DNA of 64,000 nt from a virus. Under the pieces are notes generated by a model that was given only the letters and a program-made list of their open reading frames with translations, was not told the DNA's origin and ran no database searches. The position numbers and the translations under genes were made by a program. The DNA lies in the UHGV virus genome UHGV-0038496; one strand, given 5' to 3'. Below are positions 6,460 to 45,226 of this stretch, piece after piece; the first letter of the stretch is position 1, and every line of letters begins with the position of its first letter.

Positions 6460-7186
6460 TGAGTTTGCTCCTTACAACGGGTTCGTTGGCTTCAAATACT
6501 GCTAATGCCCAACCACGAGGTGTCAGGCTCCTGATCATTTTGGTACGAGGAGATTTTCCTCCCAGCTTGGTATGTTGGAAAGAATACCCATTTACATCAC
6601 AAATCTGCGGCACAGGTCGTTTCTCAGGGACAACAAAACCATTTCCGAACCATCCACAGGTTAGCTTCGGATAAGCATCCCTGGGCTTAATCAGGTCAGG
6701 GAACCACGGGTTCTGATCGTCTTCCGGCAGATAGCCACCATACTCATACGGATGGAACTTGTAGTCCGGTTTACGCCACATATTGGACATAACACCAACA
6801 GGGTTCTCCACATGCCACGGACAATTATACATGTTACCCAGCGTTTCTGCAATACGTGCATCTTTTACAGCATTGACCTGAATCAACGGATCTTTTTGTA
6901 GTTTTTTCTTGAAATGCGCTGCCCCAGATACCGCTAAGTGGGTACATGGTGGAAACGACAGGATGAAATCTGGTGCAGGATACATCCCCAGGGTTTCTTG
7001 TGGAAACCACGGGTCAATCCAGTAGTCGATGTACTGAATGTTAGGGTGTTCCTCTACTACCTCTGCATAGCTCCCGTGATCTGCCCCTTCTGCGTTGAAG
7101 CAGAAGCACAGATACCCTGCATCAGCCCAGGGTTTGACAGCAATATCAGAGCCATTGAATAATGCCCACACTACGCCTTGCTTCAT
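6452..7186 (-). CDS. hypothetical protein (about 244 aa)
   Basis: Track ORF 6452..7258 trimmed to the ATG at 7184-7186 (MKQGVVWALFNG...) because it has an RBS GGAGGG 9 nt upstream and the longer reading frame runs through a terminator hairpin. Confidence 0.5.
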   Translation of the reverse strand: MKQGVVWALFNGSDIAVKPWADAGYLCFCFNAEGADHGSYAEVVEEHPNIQYIDYWIDPWFPQETLGMYPAPDFILSFPPCTHLAVSGAAHFKKKLQKDPLIQVNAVKDARIAETLGNMYNCPWHVENPVGVMSNMWRKPDYKFHPYEYGGYLPEDDQNPWFPDLIKPRDAYPKLTCGWFGNGFVVPEKRPVPQICDVNGYSFQHTKLGGKSPRTKMIRSLTPRGWALAVFEANEPVVRSKLNG

Positions 7187-13785: not shown

Positions 13786-14979
13786 TTAAGCCTTAGCTAA
13801 CAAGTCACGGAACTCTTCCCCAAACTGTTTGACGATAGTCATCAGGTTAGGGTATGCTTTAATCAGTTTAGCCATGATTTTCTCACGACCATGCTCTTTG
13901 TTCACCAGAATAGCATTGCCAAGTGCATTCGGGCTAATCATCGCTTTGAACACAGAGAATACGAAGTCTCTGTTGTCATTCTGGAAGTTGCTCCATAAAT
14001 ATTCCAGGAAGTTCGCAGCACTGCTAACCACTTCGTCATCATCGACTTCAATGTTAGCCATCATGTTGCGTAAGCCAATACAACCTTCTGAACCCAGAAT
14101 CCAGATGAGGTCTGGAGATTTCTGGCCTTTGAACTCTTTGACTGCCCCAGCAAAGATATCCCCAATCTCTGGCAGATTGCGTTTCTTCGTGTGGTAAGTC
14201 ATAATCTCCAGCATCATCGTGTGACCAATCGTCCCCTGTAACAGGACACGGGCTTCAGCTTCTGAAACCAGACGGCGATCAAGGTCCCACAGAATATCCG
14301 AAGCAGTTACCCATGAACGAGGTGTGGCGAATGCAGGACAGTTGCAGTCTGCCATTGCTTCGTAGTTCTCAATAGATGACGGCTGGCGTTTCAAATAACC
14401 GATCACAGAAGAATGCACACCTTGTGGGAATGCATAGTCTTCCAGGAAGACGTTGGCATCTGGGATAACTTCTACAATAGTTAAACGGTTTGCCAGAGGT
14501 GCTTCCAATACAGACAGCACTGCACCATCACCAGAACGGTTACCTGCACCTACAAACACCGCACCTTTCGGGAATTTGTAGCAACCGCATTTGTGGTCCA
14601 ACATGATCTGCATGGCTACTTTCTGGAGAAAATTATCTGCATGGTTCATTTCATCCAGCAGAATAATACCTTCCCAGTCTGGATCAGTAGGCCAGAAGCT
14701 CGGTGTGGCAAACACAGTGCGAGTTGTGCCATCTTCCTCTGTTACCGGAACAGGCAGGCCAGACAGGTCTGTTGGGTCTTTATCTGACAAACGAACATCG
14801 ATCAAGTTATCTTCCCGTTCTCCAAATAGTTTATCGGCAGTTTGCTTGATGACCTGGCTCTTACCAACACCAGGAGAACCCAGTATAAATAAAGATTTGC
14901 CGTGACGCTGGGCAAACTTGATCATAGCAGGCAACTCACGAACTGTAATCTGCCCACTTTCGAAAATGTTTCTTGACAT
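13786..14979 (-). CDS. AAA+ ATPase (MoxR/AAA_5-like)
   Basis: Walker A GSPGVGKSQ, Walker B ILLDEMNHA; 397 aa. Confidence 0.75.
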   Translation of the reverse strand: MSRNIFESGQITVRELPAMIKFAQRHGKSLFILGSPGVGKSQVIKQTADKLFGEREDNLIDVRLSDKDPTDLSGLPVPVTEEDGTTRTVFATPSFWPTDPDWEGIILLDEMNHADNFLQKVAMQIMLDHKCGCYKFPKGAVFVGAGNRSGDGAVLSVLEAPLANRLTIVEVIPDANVFLEDYAFPQGVHSSVIGYLKRQPSSIENYEAMADCNCPAFATPRSWVTASDILWDLDRRLVSEAEARVLLQGTIGHTMMLEIMTYHTKKRNLPEIGDIFAGAVKEFKGQKSPDLIWILGSEGCIGLRNMMANIEVDDDEVVSSAANFLEYLWSNFQNDNRDFVFSVFKAMISPNALGNAILVNKEHGREKIMAKLIKAYPNLMTIVKQFGEEFRDLLAKA

Positions 14980-16158: not shown

Positions 16159-16433
16159 TCTCCAACCCCCAGAGCATATGCAGGAGCTTCTTCAAATGCC
16201 AGAACCAGACGATGATTGTGGCGTGGGTCCAGGAAGATTTTAGTTACCCGTAAGCACACAGTGTAACCGTCCATTGCTGCCACAACGTAGTCACCAGGAT
16301 ACGGCAGTTTATCACCAGGGTTAACGAATGCATGGCCCATAGCCAGTTCGTCATCTGTTGTGTGGTGCATTGCAAACCATACAGCATCTGCCTGTGCATC
16401 TTCACCTACGTGGAAAATCTGAGGTTTTTTCAT
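16155..16433 (-). CDS. hypothetical protein
   Basis: 92-aa ORF with overlaps. Confidence 0.45.
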   Translation of the reverse strand: MKKPQIFHVGEDAQADAVWFAMHHTTDDELAMGHAFVNPGDKLPYPGDYVVAAMDGYTVCLRVTKIFLDPRHNHRLVLAFEEAPAYALGVGE

Positions 16434-17326
16434 TAGAAGTCTCCTTCGTATTTAATCTTAGCTTCTTCATCCCACTTCAACATAGGACGAAGTAATTCTA
16501 ACTCATTACCCAGCAGGTTGTCAACCCATAATTGATCTTTTATTCCCATCGCTTCCATAACTTCAAGAGATTCAGGTGAGAATTTACCATCCTCCCCTTT
16601 GAATGACTCCAAAGTATCCGAGCTAACACGGGCATATTCCATACGGCTATCACGCTTCCGGTACTGGAACATCAGGAATTCCCCTGTTGTGTGATACTTG
16701 TTGATCAGCATAACAGGTTCCCCACCCAGAGCTGTGTATTCCCGTGACTTAATCTGCAACGGGGCGAAGTCACTTACACTCTGGTTACCAGTCATCCTGC
16801 TAGTTATTTTCCCATCGTAGCAGAAAACGTATGGCAAGTCAAGCAGGTCAATAGAAATATCTGAAGAGTAACATACACTCCTGCCGTTCAAACTATAATA
16901 AACATACACCATAAAAGGCTGCATGTCAAATGCTTTTGCAAGCATTTTGAAGAAACCTCTCTCTCCACCGATAATGCCGTTCATAAAATAAGGATGCTCT
17001 GCTATAGAGGCAAAGCCTTGTTGGAAACGGAACATGACACACCCAGCACGCTGCCACGATACAGCCTTATTGATCTCCATGCTGAAGCTACCCATAAAAT
17101 TATGGCCTGGCATATCTTCTTTAGTGAACATCCAGTGGAAATCATCAAACCCTGCACTATTGATCGTAGTGTTGATTGAGTTTGCTATTAAGTTGTAGAA
17201 CGGGTGGCAAGCTGTGAACAGTCTGCGACGATACAGGATACTCTCATACAAAGAAGAAAGTATTGTTCCCACATCTGTTGGGGCTTGACTCATAGGGTCA
17301 AATGGTGTAATATGATGCTCAAACAT
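16433..17326 (-). CDS. hypothetical protein (about 297 aa)
   Basis: Track ORF trimmed to ATG at 17324-17326 (MFEHHITPFD...) with RBS GAGAGGAA 7 nt upstream; the longer version would overlap the divergent promoter region. Confidence 0.5.
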   Translation of the reverse strand: MFEHHITPFDPMSQAPTDVGTILSSLYESILYRRRLFTACHPFYNLIANSINTTINSAGFDDFHWMFTKEDMPGHNFMGSFSMEINKAVSWQRAGCVMFRFQQGFASIAEHPYFMNGIIGGERGFFKMLAKAFDMQPFMVYVYYSLNGRSVCYSSDISIDLLDLPYVFCYDGKITSRMTGNQSVSDFAPLQIKSREYTALGGEPVMLINKYHTTGEFLMFQYRKRDSRMEYARVSSDTLESFKGEDGKFSPESLEVMEAMGIKDQLWVDNLLGNELELLRPMLKWDEEAKIKYEGDF

Positions 17327-17400
17327 GGAAAGGTTCCTCTCTTGTTCTGTTATTGGCGAAGAATAGATCAAGATGAACCAAAAGTCAACAACATTTTTAG

Positions 17401-17429
17401 TTGACAAGGGTAAAATTTCATGTTAATGT
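17401..17429 (+). promoter_or_regulatory. sigma70-like promoter (TTGACA, 17-nt spacer, TAATGT)
   Basis: -35 TTGACA at 17401-17406, -10 TAATGT at 17424-17429, about 35 nt upstream of the ATG at 17464. Confidence 0.45.
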
Positions 17430-17463
17430 TCGCCCTAAATACACACAAGCAAGGACATTTGCT

Positions 17464-18498
17464 ATGGCTAAAACAAACATTCAGTATCTGGAGGGCTGCT
17501 ATCAACCGTGGGAGTTGGAGAAGCTGAATAAAAAGTATAAACGTAAACAGGGTAATGCTAAGAAAAGGGGCATCATGTTTACGTTAACGTGGGAGGAATG
17601 GCTCTTTTTTGGGAAAAAATTATTAGGTGATGGGGTTTGTGACTACTCACTTATCCCATTCGACATGCATACAGATGAAAACGGGATAGGTAACCCGTTC
17701 TATCCTTCTCTCGAACGCATAGATTGTGAAGGTGCATACGCATTACACAATTGTTGTGTAGTGGGCACTCGTTGTAACGAGTTAAAAGACTCACTGGTTG
17801 ATCGTGCCAATGCGGTTCTCGTTAAGGATCGCCATGATCGTAAGATTGTCAAAAACATGATTCTCCATATGTCTGATGAACGAATGGAGGCCCTGAAAGA
17901 AGAATACTCTTTCGAAAACTTCATGCGCCAGTATGGCTCTGAAGAAGACAAAGCTGAACTCGGCCTGTTGGGTGGTGAAGAACTTTTGCAACAAATTGAA
18001 GCTAAGGAGGAAGAACCTATGACACCTGCACAGGAATTACGTGAGTTCATGGACAAACGTGCTGAAAAACATGTCAGGGACATTGCGAAAGAGCCTGTGG
18101 CTGAAGAAACGGCTGAAGTTGAAGAAGTACAAGCCGAAGTTGTTGAGGACCGTACAGACGCTCCTGAAGAGCCTAAACCGCTACCTCAGGCATTACCACC
18201 AGATGTGGCTGTTGCTCAGGCTTATGCTTTCTACTGCCAGGTCTTCTACGACATAGGTATGAAAGTGGATCTGACATTCGGACAGTTCAAACAAGTGTAC
18301 CAGAAAAAATGTTGTGCACTGACTGGTGAACGCCTGGGTGACGGACTTAAATCTATCCTGGTGGCTGATCGTGATAAAGGTTTTGTCAAAGGTAACTTCA
18401 TGGTAGTTACACCTGTGATGGAAAAAGCGATGACTGACCTCATGAAAACGACTAACATGACGATGGCAGAGCTTGCAAACATCTTCAAAAAGGTGTAA
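17464..18498 (+). CDS. hypothetical protein with two Cys-containing domains separated by an acidic linker
   Basis: Start moved to the ATG at 17464 (MAKTNIQYLEG...), which has an AAGGA RBS and sits downstream of the promoter; N- and C-terminal segments share a F.LT...KK..G.C pattern around an EEPVAEETAEVEEVQAEVVED linker. Confidence 0.5.
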   Translation: MAKTNIQYLEGCYQPWELEKLNKKYKRKQGNAKKRGIMFTLTWEEWLFFGKKLLGDGVCDYSLIPFDMHTDENGIGNPFYPSLERIDCEGAYALHNCCVVGTRCNELKDSLVDRANAVLVKDRHDRKIVKNMILHMSDERMEALKEEYSFENFMRQYGSEEDKAELGLLGGEELLQQIEAKEEEPMTPAQELREFMDKRAEKHVRDIAKEPVAEETAEVEEVQAEVVEDRTDAPEEPKPLPQALPPDVAVAQAYAFYCQVFYDIGMKVDLTFGQFKQVYQKKCCALTGERLGDGLKSILVADRDKGFVKGNFMVVTPVMEKAMTDLMKTTNMTMAELANIFKKV

Positions 18499-18517: not shown

Positions 18518-18537
18518 GAGGGGGCTTTTGCCCCCTT
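18518..18537 (+). terminator. weak intrinsic terminator or attenuator
   Basis: GGGGGC-TTTT-GCCCCC hairpin followed by TTTGG; located between the 17464..18498 gene and the RBS GGAGGA of the next gene. Confidence 0.3.
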
Positions 18538-18549
18538 TGGAGGATCGTA

Positions 18550-20004
18550 GTGGACGCAAGAAGTTCAGAACTGATTTTAGCACAGAAACCAGAAGCTCTA
18601 CGTATGCTCCAGGGTGCTCGCATGTGGCTCATGGAAAGACTGAGCTTCTACGGTGTGCTCCTGTCAGGCTTACAATTTGTTGAGAACCACACATGGTGTG
18701 ACACTATTGCCACAGACCATAAGCGGATTTACTACAATCCAGAGTTCATCGTGGGTGTTTGTCAGGAACGCCGTGCTATCATTCTGCCTAAGTGCGATGA
18801 TAAAATGAAAGAACAGCTGGATGCTTTCTATGCACCTAAAACGCTTAAAGAGGTTGCTTTTCTCCTGTGTCATGAGATAGGTCACATCATTGCTGATCAC
18901 ATCAGCCGTGGTAAAGCCTTCTCTGATCACAACCTGTTTAACCAGGCTGCTGACCACGTTATTAATACGGGGCTGATGGAAGATTTAGCTGAACCGCCAT
19001 GTGCAATGTTCCCACACGGCATTCGCACACAGCTGAAAAAAGGCCAGCCGTTTGCATTCCTTGAGTATTGCTATTGTGATAAGAAATACCACGGGTGGAT
19101 AACTGAAAAAGTTTATGCAGACCTGGAAAAACAACAACAGCAGCAACAAGGTAAAGGACAAAGTGCCAGTGGTGGTGGTCTACGAGCCACAGATACTCAC
19201 ATGGGTGACGGACAAGGCCAGTCTGACAACCTCAGTGAAGCTATGGGCTACGAAAAAGGCAACCAGCCACCAATGACTCAGGCAGAGAGAGATGCAGCAA
19301 TGCAGGACTCTGGGGACATGATGGAAGCTGCTATGCAGGCGGCAGGTGGTGAAGGTCCGGCACAGGTGCGTGAGTGGATCAAAAATCGCAATAAGCCTAT
19401 TATCAACTATCTGGATGTGATTCGCCAGCGTATGTTGTCACACCGGAAAGCTGATATGACTTATCGCCGTCCGGCACGTCGCTCTGGTGCTTTAACTCAC
19501 ACATTACGTAACAAAGGGGCTATCAACAATCGCCAGTCTGTTATTCTCCCAGGTCGCAACCAGGAGAAAACGATTGACATAGTGGTTGCATTCGACGTAT
19601 CAGGCTCTATCTCTCAACGAACTCTGAAACGTATCACTTCAGAAATCGGTGGGTTGTGCAGCCTGTATAAAGAGTTCAAAGTTACAATGTTCTGTTGGTC
19701 AACAGAAGTTGGTGATGTTCAGGTATACACTCACCAGAATATTGCACAGATGCCTGACTACCAGATTAAGTCTACGTTCGGTACTCGCGCAGGCTGTGTG
19801 TTTGAATATCTGGATAAACATCTGTCTGATGTTCAGGATGTGATTATCTTTACTGACCTGTATCTTGAATCAGATTTTGAAAAAGAGGTTGACAGGAACA
19901 ACTGGGATAAGTATAATACGCTCTGGATCAGGACAGAAGGTGGTAACAAGAACTATACGCCATCTTTTGGCAGAACTATTGATTTGATTGAAAACGCTAA
20001 ATAG
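18550..20004 (+). CDS. putative zinc metallopeptidase-like plus von Willebrand factor A domain protein
   Basis: GTG start with RBS GGAGGA; HExxH motif LCHEIGHIIADH in the N-terminal half; vWA MIDAS-like VAFDVSGSIS in the C-terminal half; Q/G-rich low-complexity linker. Confidence 0.65.
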   Translation: MDARSSELILAQKPEALRMLQGARMWLMERLSFYGVLLSGLQFVENHTWCDTIATDHKRIYYNPEFIVGVCQERRAIILPKCDDKMKEQLDAFYAPKTLKEVAFLLCHEIGHIIADHISRGKAFSDHNLFNQAADHVINTGLMEDLAEPPCAMFPHGIRTQLKKGQPFAFLEYCYCDKKYHGWITEKVYADLEKQQQQQQGKGQSASGGGLRATDTHMGDGQGQSDNLSEAMGYEKGNQPPMTQAERDAAMQDSGDMMEAAMQAAGGEGPAQVREWIKNRNKPIINYLDVIRQRMLSHRKADMTYRRPARRSGALTHTLRNKGAINNRQSVILPGRNQEKTIDIVVAFDVSGSISQRTLKRITSEIGGLCSLYKEFKVTMFCWSTEVGDVQVYTHQNIAQMPDYQIKSTFGTRAGCVFEYLDKHLSDVQDVIIFTDLYLESDFEKEVDRNNWDKYNTLWIRTEGGNKNYTPSFGRTIDLIENAK

Positions 20005-22968: not shown

Positions 22969-23460
22969 ATGGATTCTGGCTACGATGACGGTAGTGGGGA
23001 TATTTTTGATTACAGCAGTTTAACCACTTCTCTGCCGTTTGAAACACGTAATGGCACGAAGATTGCTGCATTTGACTTCGATAATACGTTCAATGCAGAG
23101 CCTTTCATCTTCGCCTCATTTGTTGGCGCGTTGCAGAAGGCTGGTTGGTATTGCTGCTTTGTCACATTCCGGTTCCCTGAACAGGACAGCTGTGACATTC
23201 GAATGTGGGCTGAAAAGCTGGGTATGGATATCTTCTACACTTCTGGTGTACAGAAAGCAGCTTACATGGCTACGATGGGCATCTTCCCAGATATCTGGGT
23301 TGATGATAACCCAGCAGGTATCCCAGCTAAAAACCAACTGGAGTTCGCCAGGGATGAAGTGATGTATAAACGTAAAGCTAAACAGAATAACTGGCCTCTT
23401 GTTATAGAGGACTACCCAGAACCTGAAGCTGAACCAGAGGAGTACTTACATGAAAAATAA
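22969..23460 (+). CDS. putative HAD-superfamily phosphatase / nucleotidase-like protein
   Basis: Motif I-like AAFDFDNTF (DxDxT) near the N-terminus; 163 aa. Confidence 0.4.
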   Translation: MDSGYDDGSGDIFDYSSLTTSLPFETRNGTKIAAFDFDNTFNAEPFIFASFVGALQKAGWYCCFVTFRFPEQDSCDIRMWAEKLGMDIFYTSGVQKAAYMATMGIFPDIWVDDNPAGIPAKNQLEFARDEVMYKRKAKQNNWPLVIEDYPEPEAEPEEYLHEK

Positions 23461-24327: not shown

Positions 24328-27300
24328 TTACGCTTCCTTGAAGTTAAATCCCGCACGACAAGCTGTCTGAGAGATTCCTTGTACAGAAACAGAAAGCGAT
24401 ATGTAGGTTTTACCGTTTTCCATATCGTTCCAGTTGAGTTCATAACCGCACCAACCAGATTCACTCAGTGCAACCGTAGGAGAAGAATAACCGAATTTGG
24501 CTAATCTTGACGGGTCGCCTGTGTAAATCGTTAGCTGGCCTGACGGTACACCTTTAAGTTCTGGGATATACATACCACCAAAAACTCTCATCGGGTAACT
24601 TACCAGTGTCTGGTAGCTACACGGTTGAGCAGAGAATGTCTCCATATTGCTTGTACCGTAAGGTTGCGGATAAGCCCCGTCAGTCGGGTTACCTACCCAC
24701 GCCCTGTATTGCGGGTGAATCTCTTTAACCGTAATCGTGGTCGTCTTCGTGAAGACTGTTCCGTTAGTATCAGTACAGGAGTATGTGATAACAGCTGTAC
24801 CTACACCCACGAATTTAACCTGACCTGTATCAGTGGTGATCGTGACGGCATCCGGGTTATTCGTTGACCAGGACTCTGAAGCAGCAACTGCGCCATCAGG
24901 TTGCATAGTCGGTTTACGCATAACACCGCTACCACCTTTGATACCAATTCCGTTGAACGGGTTAGGCAGATCGCTCAAGCCTGTAATAACAGTACCGGAA
25001 CCACATTTCCAGTTATAGAGTTTACTAAAGGTATATGAACCTTCGCCGTAAGAAACTTTAGCTGTAATTGTGATAACCGCTGAACCGTTTTTCAGAGCGT
25101 TGATAGCGAATTTACGGTCAGTGAGTTTGGTAGCAACAAAGACTGTTGGATCACTTGAAGTAACCTCAAAGCTCAGACTTGCTGCACCACCAGGTAAGAA
25201 GTTGTCCGTAACGTAGAAGCCTGACTGCGTACCTGACTGGCTATAAGGATAAGTACCACGTTCCTGATAGGCATTCGTTGGAGAATAGAAGCCTTTCAGC
25301 AAGAACTCATAGGTCACGCTTGAACCAGCGGCCCATGTGTGGTTATTGTTCATTAAAGCCCAGCTGTCAGAGTTACTGAATCCATAAATGGAGACACTAC
25401 CTGATTTCGCAGTTACCCTCGGAGATATTTCCAAAGCACCTTTGGTGTAAGGGCCTGCCATATTATCTCTTAAAGTACTGGTTTCATCAGAAGCCTCAAC
25501 CATGGCGGTAAGTTTTGTACCAGCGGATTCTTTACCTGTTTCATCCGTCCAGCGAATTTCAACTGGAACACACCATGCACCAAGTTCAGCGTTCCCGTTA
25601 GGTATTGTACCATCAGTTGGAGTATGGTAAGTGTATGCAAGATCTTTTCTTACCACGAACTCAGCGAGGTTGCTGTAAGCAGAGTTTGCAGCAATTATTG
25701 CACCGTCCAGAGCTTTTTGCGGGTAAATCAGTATATATTCATCCGCAATCCAACTGGTGTTGGGCATACCCCACCATTTCTTATCGCTGTCTGGAGACAG
25801 TTCGCATCCTGTTCTAACATCCATATACTGAATCCGTTTCGTATATTCGATATTAGAATAAGTTTGTGCAACTCTAGGACCCAAAGCCCCCGAAGTTTTG
25901 TCATAAACCATCATAGATAGTGTGACAGGATCCGGGCGTGATATACCGAAGCATTCTACCAGTTTTTCTTTCGGTAATGCACAACAGTTGTCATTAGACG
26001 CATTGGTTGTGGTGTAAACCAATTTGTTATTACTGTCCCATACCTGCAACTGAATGTTGCCAGGTGTCCAGCTTGTGTACTTGGACATGTCGTCGAAGTA
26101 CAGGAACAAATCCCCATCTGCGTTCGTATTTGCATACGTGTTAGCTGAGGTTTTATTCCAACATGGTAAGGTGAACCAACGAGGAATCTGTTTCTGAATA
26201 AGATTACCGCCTATTGCCTGACAAATTTCTCTAGAGAGAACTTCACGGGCAAGAGGTTTGTAACCCCATTCGATCATTGACCCATTGTAACCTTCCACTT
26301 TGTAGGCATCTGAACCTTCCTGGAACAGGATACGAGTCACAGCTGAGTTATAAGAGTTTACAGGTTTAACTGCAAACTGAGAGTAAACCCTCATCCTCAT
26401 ATTCTGCCATTCTCTACCACCGATCTCCCATTGGTTGTCATAGCAACGCATCAGAGAGGTCCAGCAGATCGGAGCCATACGCAAGCCATCGCCGAATCCT
26501 TTTGTCTGGTCATTGAATATTTTCCAGAGGAAAATGTTTACTGACCACATGGCTCTGTGGAAGTTGAACCAGTTGACAGAACGAGCAGCGTTTTGAAGAG
26601 AAGTACCATCAAGATTAGGCCACACAGCATTAACCAGCATATCTTCTGTACCTGCATCCAGAACTACCCCTCTGATTCTCGGAACACGATTTGCACGGTC
26701 TGCTTCGCACCAATTCTTGATTAGCTGGAGTTGTCTACCATAAACCTCGGACTGATCGGTTTTCTCCAACATCACCTGTTTAACATGAACAATAGGATCA
26801 CCATAGTTACCGTTAATAGCCTCTGGTAGCATAGTCTGACCAAAGTCAAAACGGATACCACTCAAAGTGTTTCCACTGTCGGTTGCCCAATCAGCTACGG
26901 AGCTGAAGTCAAACTCAAACAGCCACCAGCCTGCACCTAACAGAATACGTCTGCATTTTGAGGTGTCTGTGCTGGTGATTTTCCGAACTTCCCTATACCC
27001 CTCGCTATTAATATTATAATAGCAATCAATGATGTAAGGTGATGTACCTGAAGCATTACCTGTAGGCACATTTTTACCGATCTGATCACAACTAACAACC
27101 AGTTTTACTTGCTGGAATCCTGAGGACATTGGTACTGACATAGCGGTAGCAGCCAGATCACCACGCGGATCGTGAACTTTCTCAATACAGATGAAACCAT
27201 CCAGAACACTTGAACCAGATGGTGTTACATTCTGCGGAATAAAGTTGCAGGTCTGGTTCATTTGAGTCCATGAACCTATCTCTTTATCCATCAGGTTGCA

Positions 27301-30159
27301 ACGGGCATCGCTGTAAAGCTCACCAGGCCCCCAGTAATACTGAGCATAGCAGTTAAAGAACCATCTTGTTCCATCATATTTGTTTTTATCCACCTGGACT
27401 TCGTTGGCCTGTTTCAGCAAGAATGTATGAGTCTCCGTGAAGATAGCAGGCAGTGTCTGGCATTGGCGAGGCACATAGCCTTGTCCGTTGTTGAACCATT
27501 GGTTACAGCAATAATCACGCAAATAATCGTAACTGCAATATTTGCTGTTAGCATCTTCACTATCGAACAGCGCCAGGTTAGTACCACCAGCACACATGAT
27601 ATATTCATTAACAAATTTATCACTGCGTACAGTTTTTGAATCGACTGTGAACCATTTGGCTTCTGGATCTGTATCCTTAACACGGGTATCTTTAATACAG
27701 ACGTAACACAGGTTAGTAACACCCAGTTTTTTCTGCATATCACGTTTCATACCAAGCATGAATTTGGTGGCACTGGCACCAGGTGTAACAGTGTAATACC
27801 AGTCAGCATCGTGTGCACCAACAACACGAGGATCCTCTTTGAACGCAGCAATGCTGTATGCTACGTTGTTAGCAGGATTAGCAGGTGTTACTTTCGCCTG
27901 AATATCCCCATAGCTGTTCTTAACAATCTCTACAGTGATATCCCCACCGCGTGGTGTACGGATAATCTTACGTGAAGTATCGGCAGAACCACCACCCAGG
28001 GTTAACCCGATATTCTGGTGAGTACCGTCATAGTATTCAATCGTTGATTCCCAACGTAAACCGAAGAAACCAGCATCGTAGCTGACGACTTTCAATGTGC
28101 GTGCACCTCCAGCAGGTTTTTGAGGCGTAGGCCACGGGTTAGCATGGTCGTGAACGTTCAGAGAAGTCCCATTCTGTTCATTGACCTGGTACATTTTACC
28201 ACCAGCACCGTTAGGGTTGTATTCCCACAATGCCTGATTAGCACCTATGTATTTGTACATCTCAGGGCGTTGGTCGTAAATTTCCTGAGTCACATCGTAG
28301 GTCACAGAACCTGCATCTTTTCTGTGCAATCTGATTTTGAATGCATCAGCGTTTTCAGTTGCAGGCTGTGCAGTATCCAGACCTAAGTAAGTCGTGCTAC
28401 CCAAAGATAAGGAACGGTTCAAACCTGTAGTGTACCATGCACTATCAGCTGGGATCATAGGTATGATCGTGTTCCAGTTAATGTTTCTGGTAAGATGTGT
28501 GTGAGTACCAGTTTTATCATGATAGGTGATTTTTACATGGTACAGACCACGACGATCAATGTTTTTGTTCTGTTGGGTAATAAGACAATCCCATAAACCG
28601 AATTCCGAATGGTTAGCATAAGCTGTATACAAAGGATCAGAAACAACTGTCTGTGCAGCATTGGTGATCTCAACTTTGTCGATAAACCACGTTGCACCCC
28701 TAGGCAGAGGTTTAACTCTCAGTTGAACTGTATCCCCAACATAGATGTTGTTAACAGGGTGTTCAGACCCCCATCCGTTGACTCTACTAACTTCTTCAAC
28801 CTCAAAACTGGATACCGGAACGTTCTTAATCCAGTTTGGGTCTACCTGTGTGAAACCTTGAGAACTAAGTTGACCACCGAACAGGTTATTGCAGCCTGCG
28901 AAGTTACCACGAGGAACACCAGACCACCAAAGTTTACCGTTCACCACGGTCAGTGTGCCCATGTAACCTTCACGGTTAATACCTTGGAAGTAAACATTCT
29001 CTGCCCAACTGACAGGTGTACGTTGCTCAACATATGCAGCTGTAGCAATCGCCTGTTTGTGTTGGAACTGTGCACGGGGGTTGGCTTCAGCAGAAGACCA
29101 GCCAACATCGTTACACAGGTTACGAGAGAAGCCTCTGTACTGTTTTGAACCATTATTGAAGAAGATACCATTGGTAGCGTGACCTCTTGCAATAATCACT
29201 TCGTGAGTGTAGGTAATGTTCAATGAACGCCAGGTTTTATCTCCCCAGGAATTCTGTCCATAAAATACGTATACAGGTAAGCCAGAACCGTCTGTGTGAA
29301 TACGTTCTGTAGCAACTATGGCCCCATTCGGACCACACATAAACCATTTGTAGGTTTCACTATTACCAAGCAGATTTGCCCATGTACCGTGCTCTGGTGG
29401 ATAAACCAGGGTAAGCTGACTGTTATTACGCAAGAAATCGTAACCAGCAACCCAATAGCCGTCTGGGCCACCATAGATCACAGAGTTATCATGAACTTCC
29501 AGATTCAATGCAGGGTTTTTCCACTGGCCTGTTACAGGATCCTGAGAAGTTTCGGCAATTTTAACAGGGTTAGCATGTTGGTTTTTATCCACATGCAAAG
29601 AACCGTAGGTGTTATTACCTGAACCATAGATATCCCAGATACCTTCACCTTCAGGTGCACCAATCACCCAGCAAGTGTTGTTCATACCGCCACAGACTTC
29701 GATTAGGCGCTCAGGATGCGTATCAAGCCCCAGAGTGGTCGTAATTTGTGAAGGTAATGCAGTCCACTTAGTTACACAAACATCGTTACCACCAGCCGCT
29801 GTGGAGCCGATAAGACCAGCTGTACAACCGATGTAAAAGAATTTATGATCGAAACTTTCAATCACAAAAGAACGGTCTGCTCTCCAGACATGGTTGATGT
29901 TACGGATCGACTCGTTCGGATAAATACATTCATTGCGGTTGCCTGTTCCGCATTCGCCATATTTGTTAGCGCCTGTCAGAACCAGTAAACCATCCGCATA
30001 AAGAATTGCCAGACTATTTACATATGCTACTGAGTTGCTTGTGCCATCACTTTTATCTATTGGATAGGACAGAACAGCAAGTTCCTTGATCCCATCCTTC
30101 GAGTCCAGATGGAAATTAGCAAGTTTTAACAGAGGAATTGGAAACATTGTGTTCTCCAT
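24328..30159 (-). CDS. very large tail fibre / adhesin-like structural protein (1943 aa)
   Basis: N-terminal region with RCC1-like repeats (LVLTGANKYGECGTG, YGSGNNTYGSL); C-terminal Ig-like segments (AVITITAKVSYGEG..., VTITTDTGQVKFVGVGTAVITYS...); RBS GGAGAA. Confidence 0.6.
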   Translation of the reverse strand: MENTMFPIPLLKLANFHLDSKDGIKELAVLSYPIDKSDGTSNSVAYVNSLAILYADGLLVLTGANKYGECGTGNRNECIYPNESIRNINHVWRADRSFVIESFDHKFFYIGCTAGLIGSTAAGGNDVCVTKWTALPSQITTTLGLDTHPERLIEVCGGMNNTCWVIGAPEGEGIWDIYGSGNNTYGSLHVDKNQHANPVKIAETSQDPVTGQWKNPALNLEVHDNSVIYGGPDGYWVAGYDFLRNNSQLTLVYPPEHGTWANLLGNSETYKWFMCGPNGAIVATERIHTDGSGLPVYVFYGQNSWGDKTWRSLNITYTHEVIIARGHATNGIFFNNGSKQYRGFSRNLCNDVGWSSAEANPRAQFQHKQAIATAAYVEQRTPVSWAENVYFQGINREGYMGTLTVVNGKLWWSGVPRGNFAGCNNLFGGQLSSQGFTQVDPNWIKNVPVSSFEVEEVSRVNGWGSEHPVNNIYVGDTVQLRVKPLPRGATWFIDKVEITNAAQTVVSDPLYTAYANHSEFGLWDCLITQQNKNIDRRGLYHVKITYHDKTGTHTHLTRNINWNTIIPMIPADSAWYTTGLNRSLSLGSTTYLGLDTAQPATENADAFKIRLHRKDAGSVTYDVTQEIYDQRPEMYKYIGANQALWEYNPNGAGGKMYQVNEQNGTSLNVHDHANPWPTPQKPAGGARTLKVVSYDAGFFGLRWESTIEYYDGTHQNIGLTLGGGSADTSRKIIRTPRGGDITVEIVKNSYGDIQAKVTPANPANNVAYSIAAFKEDPRVVGAHDADWYYTVTPGASATKFMLGMKRDMQKKLGVTNLCYVCIKDTRVKDTDPEAKWFTVDSKTVRSDKFVNEYIMCAGGTNLALFDSEDANSKYCSYDYLRDYCCNQWFNNGQGYVPRQCQTLPAIFTETHTFLLKQANEVQVDKNKYDGTRWFFNCYAQYYWGPGELYSDARCNLMDKEIGSWTQMNQTCNFIPQNVTPSGSSVLDGFICIEKVHDPRGDLAATAMSVPMSSGFQQVKLVVSCDQIGKNVPTGNASGTSPYIIDCYYNINSEGYREVRKITSTDTSKCRRILLGAGWWLFEFDFSSVADWATDSGNTLSGIRFDFGQTMLPEAINGNYGDPIVHVKQVMLEKTDQSEVYGRQLQLIKNWCEADRANRVPRIRGVVLDAGTEDMLVNAVWPNLDGTSLQNAARSVNWFNFHRAMWSVNIFLWKIFNDQTKGFGDGLRMAPICWTSLMRCYDNQWEIGGREWQNMRMRVYSQFAVKPVNSYNSAVTRILFQEGSDAYKVEGYNGSMIEWGYKPLAREVLSREICQAIGGNLIQKQIPRWFTLPCWNKTSANTYANTNADGDLFLYFDDMSKYTSWTPGNIQLQVWDSNNKLVYTTTNASNDNCCALPKEKLVECFGISRPDPVTLSMMVYDKTSGALGPRVAQTYSNIEYTKRIQYMDVRTGCELSPDSDKKWWGMPNTSWIADEYILIYPQKALDGAIIAANSAYSNLAEFVVRKDLAYTYHTPTDGTIPNGNAELGAWCVPVEIRWTDETGKESAGTKLTAMVEASDETSTLRDNMAGPYTKGALEISPRVTAKSGSVSIYGFSNSDSWALMNNNHTWAAGSSVTYEFLLKGFYSPTNAYQERGTYPYSQSGTQSGFYVTDNFLPGGAASLSFEVTSSDPTVFVATKLTDRKFAINALKNGSAVITITAKVSYGEGSYTFSKLYNWKCGSGTVITGLSDLPNPFNGIGIKGGSGVMRKPTMQPDGAVAASESWSTNNPDAVTITTDTGQVKFVGVGTAVITYSCTDTNGTVFTKTTTITVKEIHPQYRAWVGNPTDGAYPQPYGTSNMETFSAQPCSYQTLVSYPMRVFGGMYIPELKGVPSGQLTIYTGDPSRLAKFGYSSPTVALSESGWCGYELNWNDMENGKTYISLSVSVQGISQTACRAGFNFKEA

Positions 30160-40318: not shown

Positions 40319-43300
40319 TTACGCTAAACGCACAATATAGTTAAATGCAACGTTCTTAACGGTGTTTTCCGTATTACCCGCAGCATTAACCGTGATTGTG
40401 TGGCTGTGTGCACCAATACCAACTGTATGACTGTGTGAGCCGATACCTACGGAGTGGGTGTGAGTACCATTCCCGTCGATAGATCCACTCAGTGAGTGTG
40501 TGTGGGCACCATCCCAAGAAGTTTTAGCCGCCCTCGACACAGCTGTTTTACCAGTAAACGAGCTACTGGTAAGTTTCCACAAAGTCTGTGAACCCTCAGT
40601 AGTGTAACCATCCTGGAAAGTACTAGCACCTGCACCATCCTGGACCTGACAACCGGAACGAGCGTGTTGGTGAGAACCACCAGAACCAACGCTACCCTTG
40701 AGACTGTGACCGTGCCAGCCACTTTCGCCAGTAGTTTTACTACCATAGTTGAAACCAGAAGTGGTTTTAGTACCAAGATCCACACTGTTGGAACTTGCAC
40801 CGTGGGTGTGTGATTTGATACCGTCAGCTTCGGTTGACAGAACATCACGACCAGTGGCTGGTTTACCTTTAATGGTCTGACCACGCATGTCAGGGAGAAC
40901 CCCGCTCGGATACGCAGCAGCCAGTTTAGGATAAGCAGCTTTGTCGAATCCCTGACCAGCCATGATAGCATAACCAGAAGGTGCTGTGTCAGTAGGCCAC
41001 GGTAGCGGAACACCAACCGGAACTCCTGTTTCAGCAAGGTTAACACCATCCATAGTCAGGAACTGGTTTGCTGTAACAATATTACCAGTAATGTTACCGT
41101 TTACTGAGAAATATTTATGCAAGTTATCTTCAGCTGTACCACAGTGGAATACCCAATCGGAAACACCCTGCTCGATATCGGTAGTATCTAAGATTTGGAA
41201 TTCCAAAACGTTCTTACGAGTACTTCCGTTACCCCAATAGTACAATCTGCCGTTATTAGCAGGTAAATTGGAGTTGTTGCTAGGATTGTCAGAACCACCA
41301 ACATGAATGAGCAACTCTTTATCTGTTTCGTCAACATTACGATTCGAGCGTAACTGGATAGCTTTACCAGAATCGTGCCGCCAAACTTCCCACATGTAAG
41401 TTGACCCAGTTCTATCCATGTTACCAACACGGGTATATCTGTCACCAAAACGTGTGATGTACTCCTGTACGCAGCCTTTCGGATTGTTTGCATTGTTCTG
41501 GTAAACAATCAGAGTACCAGCGTACGGTGCTGGGTAATGCCTTTCAGTTGTACAGTCAGCATCTTTTGGTTGGTGGTAAATACCCTCACGAGTACCATCG
41601 TAAGTGTTCAGGTCTGTAGCGTCAAGGCCTACACCTTTATGAGTTAAGATCCTGTTCCATGGTCTGTGATAACCAGCTTCAATGGATCTTGTATACATCT
41701 GGTCAAGGCGACCAGCCATCTGGAAAGCATAGTTTCCAGAGAATGATACAGATATACCACCAACAACCATTGAACCTTCAGGCCCGTTGGTGCTGCCAGC
41801 CATCACTTTGCACGGATTGTTAGCCCCGAACTGGTTGTTCCAGTCACCACTTGTATGGCATACAAAACCACTAGGTGAGTGGAGAGTACCGTCAGCATTA
41901 AAGTTCCAGAATTTATGAGCAGAACCTGTCATATCCCGGACAATAACCTGACCACCAGAACCTGCTGCACGGAATTCAGCCTGACCTAAGTTACCGCATT
42001 TAGAGGTGAACGTACAGTTGATTAAATCTTCTGTACCCTCGGATCTTGTCAGGAAGCCTGCGTTAGATTCAAGAGCTTTACGGGTTGTCTGGCTACCTGG
42101 GCAGATGTATTTCAGACCATTGAACCAGAGTTCTGTTTCACCCATCTCTGTTTTGTTCTGCAAGAACCATTTTTCTCTGGAACCACGATACATCCATTGG
42201 TTACAGTAGAAACCGCTTACACCACCTGTAAAGTCGAAGAGTGCACGCGTGTTGGTTATGCCGTCACCCAATAATGCCTCTTTAAGGCTGGTGATACCTG
42301 CTTTGTATACAACCCCATCGTTATTTTCCGTAGGAGTACCGGATACAAAGTCGTTAGCATAAGTACGAACATCTGTTACTACAGAACTTGCATAAACATA
42401 GACAGGGAACGCTTTTTCATGGACATAGATGGCAGCATATTGCTGATTGCCACGAGTAGGAACAAGCAACCCCAAAATGGACGCTTCATTCTGGTAAAAG
42501 TTGATAATACCGTAGGCAGAATCACCTCTGTCTGTCCAACCACCAGTGCGATACCAACATCTCAGGGTGGAACAGTTCATAGGTTCACTACCCATCGCAG
42601 ATCTGGTATGAATGAGGAGGTCTGTACCAATTGTACCGTTTACCGAAGGTGTGTTGATAATAACAGGATAATATTTATCCTCTTCCGCACCATCAGGTTT
42701 CTGAATTACGAAAGGTGTCGTGTTTACAGCAGAACCACCTGTACCAGTGCTGCTACCACCGCCTTCACCACCGGAGATACCTATGCGTTCTAACCATGCT
42801 TTAACTTCGGTATCAGATACACAGCCTGTACCACCTTTTTCTACTGGGAGTACACCTGTGATCTTATCATCGGTTAAACCAACAGAATCCATTTTACCTA
42901 AAGCACGACCACCGAGGTTAGTCCATGCAGTGGCTGGATCTTTGGCACCAGTACCACCATTGGCAATAGGAAGTGGGATAGTACCTAGACCTTTAGAAGA
43001 ATAACATCCCCAAGCGTCACCACCAGTATTTACGTACAAATACGCAGTACCTGCTTTATTACAAAGCTGAGTCTCACCACCAGTTGTCTGAGTCAGACGA
43101 TCAACCGAAAGGTTGACACGAGCATCAGCAACGGTTCTCGCACCTGTACCGCCTTGGGAGATACTCAAAGGTTGCCAGTTACCAATTTTAGGGTTAAATG
43201 CCCCCCACTGACCGTCAGCATCAACCTGTAAGTAGCAGCCGTTAGCTTGAACGTCAGTAGAACAAACGATAGTCCTTGTATCGGTGGAACGGATGAAGCG

Positions 43301-45226
43301 GGTTAACTTCAAGCTAGTTTTCAAACCGTCGAGACTGTTTGCACCTGTACCACCTTTAGCCACAGGCAGCACACCAGTGATCTTGCCATCTGTCAACGCA
43401 ATGCTATCAAGTTTACCCAGAGCTTTACCACCCAAGTTAGCCCATGCGGTGTTCGCATCTCTTGCACCAGTACCACCCTGACCGATTGCCAGCGGGATGT
43501 AAGAGCTGTTGGCAATATCATAAGCACCCCAGAGTTTACCCTCTGTAATGATCAGTTTGGCAGTGTTTGTTGGGTTGTTGACGGCAGTTTCAGAACCTGC
43601 CTGTACAAGTCTGTTAACCTGTAAAGTATTACGGGTTGTATTCAGATCACGTACAGTAAAGGTGTTACAAGCAACAGTATACGGAACTTCAAAGTTACCG
43701 TCCTCGTTGAAACCCAGGTATCTGTGAATCTGGTTACCTTCTGGACCTTTTTTCAGGTGCAGGGTTAACCATGTTTTATTATCGTTACGGACTTCTGAGT
43801 AAATACGGAAACCGTGTTCTTCTGTCGTACCGTTAGCTTTGTATTTAGTACCATTCAGAATACCTGAAGGACCAACGTTGTTACTTACAGCTCTCAGATA
43901 CAGATTGCTAAAACTGGGTGAATTACCTGCACCAATCCCTATCCACTCACGGAAGCCGTTCGTGTTCACAGGTCTTGACCAGGTTACCCATTGCTGCCAG
44001 GTTTTTTCACCTGCATTATACCAGCGAGAATAATAGGTATCTTCGGTGTTGAACGGATGATATTCCTGACGGCAACCATCTCCCCCGTTCACGTTGTTCT
44101 GCAATACAATCAGTACACCTGCCTGTTGGCAAGGATAACCGTTAGCAGCAGTAGCAAGAGCTGACACTGGTTGATAGTAAACACCAGCTTCATTACCTTT
44201 CAGGTTATTGATATTGAAATTAGCTTCCAGTGCAGTATGGGATCTGTGGAATACCGCAAAGTTACGACGGAACGAAGCAGCATCACGAACACCTGTACCA
44301 CCCTGTTCTACACCCAGAGGTTGCCAGTTATTAGCAGTAGGGTTGTAATACCCCCAACGACCAGAAGTATCCAGTTGCAGGTACGGGACATTACCAATGT
44401 CTTCACCAGAGAAAATAGCCGTACGAGACGGATTAGTCTGGTCAAAACGGTTGAATTCAGATTTTAATGCATGTCTGTGGCATACCGCTTTGTGAGTTTC
44501 TTTGGAAACACGGATGGTGTAGATCGCACCAGTTTTGCCACCCTGCATAATAGCTTCGTACACGTTGGAAGTGGAGGTTTCCGCAACTTTCGATACGAAA
44601 CCATTTAAAGTGCCTTCACCTCTTGCAACATCAGGGAACTGAACAGTTGCTTTTTCATCCATTACGATGTGGCCTGCATAGCCTTCGAGGTAGTTAGCAT
44701 TTGATACAACAGTTACCCTTTCGAAGCTCAGGCCGTTCAGCACACGTACAGCTTCAAAAGCAGCATCAATAGCTTCATCCATAGTATCCTGAATGGTTCT
44801 ACCATCTTCAGTCAATACCAGGGAAGCACCGATTGTGGAACCTAACTCGTCACGTAAAGACGGGTCAGTGTAAACCGACCATGCACCATCAGTTACGCCA
44901 CCATCTTCGTAGGGACTTGACAATGAAGGTACAGTATGCGGGTATCCACCTGTCCAGCGTAAGTATAAATCTTCTTCCTCGTAGTAGCAGAAGTCCATCG
45001 GACCATTCAGGGTGCCACCGTCATGGAAGTTGACAACGTGGGAGAGAGTCGGATCACCTGCCATCAGATCTTTCACTGAAGTTCTGCGGGTGAGGTCTGG
45101 TTGCTGAACGATCAGATAGTCTTCTTCTTTGTTGACTTCTGTGGTTACAGGCAAAGACTCAATCCTGACAAGTTTCACATCTGCCATTGTTTCTCCTGTT
45201 AGGAGGGCCGAAGCCCTCCAGATCAA
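40319..45226 (-). CDS. giant tail fibre protein (1635 aa) with internal repeats and C-terminal His-X-His array
   Basis: Repeated modules around GGTG (QGGTGARD..., ANGGTGAKD..., GVLPV.KGGTG); C-terminal HTHSLSG...[23 protein letters not shown]...[11 protein letters not shown]. Confidence 0.7.
42826..43500 (-). repeat. tandemly duplicated coding modules within the giant fibre gene
   Basis: Two roughly 60-codon blocks (about 42826-43010 and 43306-43500) encode near-identical peptides (...[25 protein letters not shown]...); also seen as mirrored plus-strand shadow ORFs in the track. Confidence 0.5.

Follow-up and report, generated by a model that had tools for sequence, protein, structure and literature searches.

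The 64,000-nucleotide (nt) stretch of viral DNA analysed here, referred to below as the window (UHGV virus genome UHGV-0038496), carries at positions 17464–18498 of the plus strand an open reading frame (ORF) for which the preliminary description, made from the letters alone, could not name a family. That statement is superseded. According to its profile matches, the encoded protein is a member of the Srd family (T4 Srd / rV5 gp11; PHROGs 1400 and 3118), and the fold is that of a PacI-like His-Me finger. As far as its anatomy is concerned, we are highly confident that the protein consists of two tandem zinc-less PacI-like beta-beta-alpha-metal (His-Me finger/HNH) domains. The gene and the parts of its product are as follows (aa, amino acid positions; AF2, AlphaFold2; pLDDT, predicted local distance difference test; pI, isoelectric point):

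17451–17455, plus strand: Shine-Dalgarno-like AAGGA, 8 nt 5' of the ATG, read from the sequence
17464–18498, plus strand: coding sequence (CDS) of the Srd-family protein, 344 aa plus TAA stop, by translation; ortholog of rV5 gp11
17506–17805, plus strand: N-terminal PacI-like His-Me finger module (aa 15–114), predicted as helix, helix, beta-hairpin, helix (AF2, pLDDT ~90)
17707–17787, plus strand: catalytic-type motif S82-L-E84-R85-I-D87..Y92..N96..N105..K108, from alignments to PacI
17824–18087, plus strand: helical middle segment, net acidic (aa 121–208; AF2, moderate to low confidence; pI 4.9)
18088–18198, plus strand: acidic, predicted disordered linker (aa 209–245; EPVAEETAEVEEVQAEVVEDRTDAPEEP...; pLDDT 26–32; pI 4.05; net charge -9)
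18199–18495, plus strand: C-terminal degenerate PacI-like module (aa 246–344)

Translation of 17464–18498 gives 344 codons with no internal stop. The start at 17464 coincides with that of an independent gene call on the source contig, and the N-terminal sequence MAKTNIQ is common to the query and its close homologues P0001 and P0002. A longer ORF with a TTG start at 17401, present in the mechanical ORF list, is not credible, as it begins exactly at the TTGACA -35 box of a candidate promoter (see below).

When the whole protein was compared with the PHROGs, it matched phrog_3118 (4.7e-87) and phrog_1400 (‘Srd’; 1.4e-14). BLASTP against T4 Srd (NP_049634) aligned aa 17–108 with Srd residues 7–88 (E=1e-6) and aa 269–315 with residues 30–80 (E=8e-5), while hhalign returned a probability of 94%. 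Hidden Markov models (HMMs) of the N and C modules matched Srd residues 8–92 (E=3.7e-21) and 23–85 (1.7e-10), respectively; the N-terminal 90 residues of T4 Srd are homologous to both modules of the query. The motif SLER[IF]D..GY..N..N is common to the two proteins, and srd, like the query gene, is located outside structural gene blocks. Identity amounts to ~27% over ~90 residues, and the architectures differ: after its single finger module, T4 Srd continues with a helical, unrelated C-terminal half, and it lacks an acidic linker, whereas the query has two modules. Neither the N- nor the C-module HMM detected a second module in T4 Srd. The two-module form corresponds to the phrog_3118 subfamily. 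An exhaustive profile search retrieved at least 2379 cluster representatives at E<=1e-3, and most of the best 150 of these are proteins of 230–310 aa with two matched stretches. Pfam searches with the whole protein, its modules, 33 N modules, six distant relatives and T4 Srd returned no match, and Pfam, NCBIfam and PADLOC searches with the whole protein and each of its parts gave no meaningful match. The profile searches thus led to the Srd family and PacI, not to a housekeeping family, the outcome that the preliminary description had regarded as incompatible with its proposal.

That description had noticed an internally duplicated, cysteine-containing module on either side of an acidic linker. 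The repeat is invisible in pairwise comparison: Smith-Waterman alignment of aa 1–140 with aa 256–344 was not significant (score 33, z=1.9, a score reached by 60 of 1000 shuffles), which means only that single sequences cannot show the duplication. An hhalign comparison based on an alignment of 11 close homologues was too shallow (E=0.16), with the register already right. N and C modules were then taken from 123 diverse two-module relatives, which underlie the profiles and residue counts given here unless another number is stated. Alignment of the two profiles with hhalign yielded a probability of 97.7% and an E value of 1.9e-12 over 81 columns (aa 20–114 and 249–329), covering the segments originally named and pairing GIMFTLTWEEW..VCDY with GMKVDLTFGQFK..CCAL, and SLERIDCEGAYALHNCCVV with SILVADRDKGFVKGNFMVV. 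Both modules match one and the same region of T4 Srd in BLASTP and one region of phrog_1400; the isolated C module falls on the same phrog_1400 positions as the N module. The order of secondary structure elements predicted by AF2 is identical in both. On these alignments the internal duplication is real, and it is also old, because it is common to diverse relatives including homologues from Aeromonas and Vibrio phages. The mention of cysteines is weakly true, in that one cysteine per module is conserved (C59 in 121 and C284 in 117 of the 123 relatives), but the metal cluster it hinted at finds no counterpart, since the other cysteines vary. A Cys4 or zinc-binding module was rejected on account of this single conserved cysteine per module. 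Among more distant relatives, P0125, P0141 and P0165 contain two intact tandem modules, so that the pseudo-dimer, in which one chain stands in for the two of a normally dimeric nuclease, seems to recur as a design; in the rV5/Srd-like branch its second site has decayed.

The structural relationship to PacI emerged from profiles and models, while phmmer of the protein against the sequences of the Protein Data Bank (PDB) found nothing. An hmmsearch of the PDB with a profile of 33 N modules placed PacI on top (E=0.053, matching PacI residues 32–123), and hhalign of the 123-sequence N profile against PacI residues 36–120 gave 95.4% and E=1.9e-8. Structure prediction, which had been proposed as a check, produced a confident N module, and the fold obtained, a beta-beta-alpha-metal one, is closest to that of PacI. 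The C module was modelled with a pLDDT of ~83 in the full-length protein and 93.8 when modelled alone. The C-module profile retrieved nothing from the PDB sequences and aligned with the PacI sequence at E=0.25; its link to PacI is via the predicted structure only. Matches in a viral structure library comprised phage ‘anti-sigma factor’/Srd proteins and giant-virus HNH or zinc-finger proteins, which fits the mostly viral His-Me finger ‘group 20’ that Jablonska et al. (2017; PMC5714182) built around PacI.

Alignment of the N module with PacI equates E84-R85 with D92-R93, Y92 with Y100, N96 with N104, N105 with N113, and K108 with K116. Among the relatives, position 84 is E in 111 and D in 12 sequences, R85, Y92 and N96 are invariant (123/123 each, with Y92 never replaced by F), position 105 is N in 119 and H in four, and K108 is kept in 120. 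The substitutions that do occur (E/D at position 84, N/H at position 105) are those that metal ligands tolerate. The D-R-type motif, the loop tyrosine and the metal-ligand asparagine of this fold are thus present in the N module (E84-R85, Y92, N105) and missing from the C module, which has drifted: its tyrosine position is F, V, I or L and its asparagine position M, V, I or L, so that the catalytic pattern is lost, and the residues that persist, C284, D302, N311 and a few of the helix, are only those that define the fold. PMC4081073 describes PacI as lacking a general-base histidine, with the metal held by Asp and Asn and a tyrosine placed as the general base, and PMC11529989 locates this tyrosine after the D-R motif.

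The likeness to PacI (PDB 3m7k/3ldy; ‘group 20’) is nonetheless incomplete. PacI, a 142-aa homodimer, contains two Cys4 zinc sites and has His42 in its active site, whereas the query consists of a single chain in which the two copies are unequal, lacks a Cys4 site and has an isoleucine (Ile37) at the position of His42. PacI residues C66, C109 and C112 align with S/T62, G101 and the variable residue 104, and the only cysteines conserved are C59 and C284. The tandem arrangement of unequal modules would argue against symmetric double-strand cleavage. From T4 endonuclease VII and the canonical HNH enzymes (Pfam Endonuclease_7, HNH) the query differs in having Arg85 in place of their general-base histidine, in lacking a CxxC..CxxC zinc site and in matching no Pfam model.

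Between the two modules, AF2 predicts helices at residues 123–135, 138–147, 150–157, 160–165, 171–182 and 188–208, and the first part of this middle segment still aligns with T4 Srd, up to residue 133. The acidity pointed out in the preliminary description is evident from 32 D/E against 12 K/R in aa 141–255 and a net charge of about -17 for aa 121–245; most of aa 182–242 has a pLDDT <50, the linker being acidic and also predicted to be disordered. It is the region with most insertions, deletions and substitutions among the homologues. In the wider family the linker comprises 43–140 residues with a median net charge of -2, compared with -20 to -26 in the rV5-like clade, so strong acidity is a trait of that clade and not of the family. 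The idea of the acidic linker as a conserved functional element or DNA mimic was therefore dropped for the family as a whole.

As originally noted, the gene stands first after a divergent promoter. A gap of 136 base pairs (bp) separates its ATG from that of the minus-strand gene (17327), and the following elements were recognised in this gap and downstream of the Srd-like gene:

17401–17429, plus strand: candidate sigma70-type promoter of the Srd-like gene, TTGACA-17 nt-TG-extended TAATGT, read by eye
17360–17388, minus strand (written 17388–17360): candidate sigma70-type promoter of the minus-strand operon, TTGACT-17-TATTCT, from a promoter scan
18519–18536, no strand assigned: GC-rich hairpin GGGGGC-TTTT-GCCCCC between the Srd-like and DUF2201 genes, from a terminator scan and the sequence

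The plus-strand candidate has a perfect -35 box (TTGACA, 17401–17406) and a -10 box TAATGT at 17424–17429 preceded by TG; the scanner missed it because the -10 hexamer scores only 3/6, which is under the threshold. The two back-to-back -35 boxes form the best-conserved block when the gap is aligned with that of rV5 (rV5_ev147), where the equivalent of the plus-strand promoter reads TTGACA-17-TACGAT, and a promoter TTGACA..GATAAT is annotated at the same place in PVP-SE1. Bidirectional promoters between rV5 genes 10 and 11 were reported by Kropinski et al. (PMC3606486), and the location of the gene directly after a divergent promoter is kept in rV5 (PMC3606486), PVP-SE1 and Vibrio phage HNL01. 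From the promoter sequence and its conservation in rV5 and PVP-SE1, early transcription by host RNA polymerase is a reasonable inference. The cumulative GC skew of the window turns near 17–18 kb, in agreement with the divergent promoter, where the coding strand changes. On the plus strand the hairpin at 18519–18536 is followed by only TTT and then by the GGAGG of the next gene, which makes it at best a weak terminator or an RNA-stabilising hairpin, while the minus-strand reading has the score of a terminator-like site; its role might be that of a terminator, weak or bidirectional, or of an RNA-stability element.

Megablast of the locus against phage genomes gave no match, and the phage collection contained no near-identical DNA for the window. 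At the protein level, 237 records of the collection matched, 190 of which cover >=80% of the ORF; the best matches, with ~62% aa identity, are from Vequintavirus (rV5-like) genomes of 135–143 kb. Gene order agrees with that of rV5_ev147 and PVP-SE1: the minus strand encodes rIIA, a MoxR-type ATPase, several small genes and a 300-aa protein, and the plus strand the Srd-like gene followed by a DUF2201 metallopeptidase/VWA protein, as in rV5. Including Vibrio phage HNL01, the gene occupies a fixed position in three lineages. Given this shared gene order, the ORF is by comparison of sequences an ortholog of coliphage rV5 gp11, and the gene order itself is that of an rV5-like (Vequintavirinae) myophage. 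Orthologs from this group resemble the query in length class, in ~62% aa identity over 98–99% of the protein, in the two modules with acidic linker, in the neighbouring MoxR operon and DUF2201/VWA gene, and in the back-to-back promoters; they differ in linker sequence and length, they show no megablast DNA match to the query, and the query comes from a metagenome contig of 140.7 kb (ENA), not from an isolated phage. In the records these orthologs are labelled ‘anti-sigma factor’, ‘HNH endonuclease’ or ‘anti-termination’, while Kropinski et al. considered rV5 gp11 a probable homolog of T4 Srd (PMC3606486).

The start codon ambiguity seen in the window at 17401–17463, where the TTG start at 17401 is the -35 box, recurs in rV5. 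A long, 346-aa form of gp11 given in many records starts with ATG-TTG-ACA (rV5_ev147 6737–6802); this form puts the -35 box TTGACA inside the CDS, so that the true product of rV5 gene 11 is probably the 325-aa form beginning with MNLEKYY.

As to function, the gene srd is an early gene in T4, and to our knowledge Srd-family proteins are the only known phage activators of RNase E. The phage hosts among the matches are all Proteobacteria (Escherichia, Klebsiella, Vibrio, Salmonella, Aeromonas and others), which have RNase E. T4 Srd is reported to stimulate RNase E, so that host mRNA is degraded early in infection, and to bind the N-terminal (catalytic) half of the enzyme (Qi et al. 2015, as cited in PMC13232886, PMC4980113 and PMC7430671). 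Since Srd is the only member studied and speeds host mRNA decay, host shut-off via RNA decay would be the most economical function. By analogy, we see an about even chance that the protein is a Srd-like host-takeover factor that acts early on host nucleic-acid metabolism. The gene, as the first of one arm of the divergent early promoter pair, would be read by unmodified host RNA polymerase; like T4 Srd, its product would attach to host RNase E in the catalytic N-terminal half and thereby accelerate host mRNA decay, with the finger modules supplying RNA or protein contacts. With one competent site per chain, any intrinsic cut would hit a single strand (a nick, or RNA), unlike the action of the PacI homodimer. 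The preliminary description had named host-takeover or anti-defence factors as typical of such a gene position; membership of the Srd family bears out the direction of the former, while nothing in favour of an anti-defence role emerged, PADLOC giving no match.

Several points weigh against this interpretation. The connection with RNase E derives by analogy from one characterised relative with the limited identity given above, and, as Srd has one module and a different C-terminal half, the two proteins may not share the portion by which Srd touches RNase E. A near-invariant nuclease-type pattern would not obviously be needed in a pure protein-protein activator. Catalysis is putative as well, as His42 and both Cys4 zinc sites of PacI are absent, and the placement of the modules in the AF2 models is uncertain (predicted template modelling score, pTM, 0.54; pLDDT falling from 72 to 46 over the five models).

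The intact N finger points to a protein that itself binds nucleic acid and possibly cuts it. The N module might be an active His-Me finger of the PacI type, working with one metal and the help of a tyrosine to nick DNA or cut RNA, with the dead C module serving as the second half of a single-chain pseudo-dimer in substrate binding. The protein would then attack host mRNA or DNA directly, leaving RNase E only to finish the process. We regard this as a genuine possibility, if on the whole a doubtful one. It would explain why all catalytic positions of PacI are kept and near-invariant, Tyr92 never being Phe, why position 105 is only N or H, the classic HNH/HNN alternation, and why the same positions turn hydrophobic in the C module, showing what relaxed constraint looks like in this fold; the metal ligands and general base attributed to PacI above (PMC4081073, PMC11529989) agree with it, and two intact tandem modules, as in the distant relatives, are expected of a single-chain dimeric nuclease. 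The change of His42 to Ile37 and the loss of both zinc sites, which are structural in PacI, speak against it; the citing papers attribute to T4 Srd stimulation and binding of RNase E and no intrinsic activity (PMC13232886, PMC4980113, PMC7430671), and the conserved polar residues could instead serve nucleic-acid or protein binding. Extended to the whole family, and held with somewhat greater reserve, the idea would be that all Srd-family proteins, T4 Srd included, are zinc-less tyrosine-dependent PacI-type nucleases and not mere RNase E activators, the rV5-like chain with one live and one dead finger making the first cut in host RNA or nicking host DNA, and RNase E acting on the products.

His-Me fingers that have lost catalysis and retained DNA binding are known (PMC5714182), and the query, devoid of the general-base histidine, could be such an inert DNA-binding regulator, acting like SMAD MH1 as a pseudo-dimer on host or phage DNA in the switch from early to later transcription. 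Kropinski et al. speculated that gp11 belongs to an early/late switch, and the gene is the first early gene of phages in which the T4-type late-transcription proteins gp33, gp45 and gp55 were not detected (PMC3606486). We consider this unlikely, because the metal-ligand-type residues are invariant, unlike the ‘completely devolved’ catalytic regions of SMAD MH1 (PMC3384342), because the protein has no helix-turn-helix or other specificity domain, and because the reported experiments on T4 Srd point to RNA decay, not to transcription. That the protein is an anti-sigma factor or sigma decoy, mimicking sigma70/sigmaS and binding core RNA polymerase, as the label in most records has it, is most improbable: its only basis is the wording under which T4 Srd was historically annotated (‘postulated decoy of sigma factors RpoD and RpoS’), copied into rV5-like records, no sigma-factor Pfam domain was found at E<=1 and no sigma-like or anti-sigma domain was recognised, and the only functional data cited for Srd concern RNase E. 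There is equally little to recommend a mobile homing HNH endonuclease, or an anti-defence DNA mimic acting via the acidic linker, even though ‘HNH endonuclease’ labels occur in RefSeq and PHROGs, the fold is of the HNH type, and aa 121–245 are strongly acidic. Mobile endonucleases have a sporadic distribution, whereas this gene has a fixed position in rV5, PVP-SE1 and the query phage and nearly full-length counterparts in 190 of the 237 records; a canonical H-N-H/N motif is missing, with His replaced by Arg85 throughout; the acidic stretch is predicted to be disordered, has many insertions and deletions, and is not acidic across the wider family; and PADLOC gave no match.

As a fairly divergent copy of a family already catalogued in >200 phage genomes, the protein is not news by its existence, and labels in RefSeq and PHROGs had already given a hint of its HNH-type fold. 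In the literature searched, we found no explicit description of the tandem duplication, of PacI as the closest structure, or of the conservation of a PacI-type catalytic pattern in the Srd family; these are refinements, not a new kind of system. For a tandem PacI-like His-Me finger protein the labels ‘anti-sigma factor’, ‘anti-termination’ and ‘type II restriction endonuclease’ are unsupported, and a large domain family that includes T4 Srd is without a Pfam model. The invariance of the catalytic pattern in the N module raises a testable question about how Srd-family proteins work. If the intact finger were catalytic, the model of how host mRNA decays early in infection by T4-like and rV5-like phages would have to be revised; and if the nuclease hypothesis were true of the whole Srd family, it would recast the mechanism by which these phages shut off host mRNA early on, and a large family of nuclease domains, comprising at least 2379 cluster representatives and having no Pfam model, would be defined.

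Among the matching records, 16 (MG0656xx; ‘Campylobacter phage A14x, C7, C12’; 135–143 kb) contain a copy of the gene that is 61–62% identical to the query and as close to it as the Escherichia rV5-like copies; they look like E. coli rV5-like phages under a wrong host name. The ORF that opens the opposite arm, 16433–17327 on the minus strand (297 aa), is conserved in rV5 (gene 10), lacks a Pfam match and matches only a PHROG of unknown function (phrog_12338, 8.6e-22). The gene downstream of the Srd-like gene, 18550–20004 on the plus strand, encodes a DUF2201 putative metallopeptidase (Pfam, 1.3e-31) with a VWA-like domain (9.3e-11); between these two parts stands a poly-Gln/Gly-rich low-complexity insert, EKQQQQQQGKGQSASGGG (~19130–19210, aa 194–220 of the protein). 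Its label ‘HNH endonuclease’ in PHROG 1314 and RefSeq looks like a propagated annotation error. A MoxR-type AAA ATPase is encoded ~2.5 kb off on the opposite strand (13786–14979, minus), and the MoxR/VWA pair, which has no assigned phage role, is kept in rV5 and PVP-SE1.

The ORF at 22969–23460 on the plus strand, which belongs to the transcription unit of the Srd-like gene, is orthologous (61%) to the rV5 ‘polynucleotide kinase’. It has a DFDxT motif typical of HAD phosphatases and no Pfam match, which makes the kinase label doubtful; as the protein looks like a HAD-type phosphatase, no weight was given to a polynucleotide kinase in the operon as support for RNA decay. ARAGORN found no tRNA genes in the 64-kb window. 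Very large ORFs are located on the minus strand at 40319–45226 (1635 aa) and 24328–30159 (1943 aa), the latter occupying the place of the rV5 ‘structural protein with Ig domain’.

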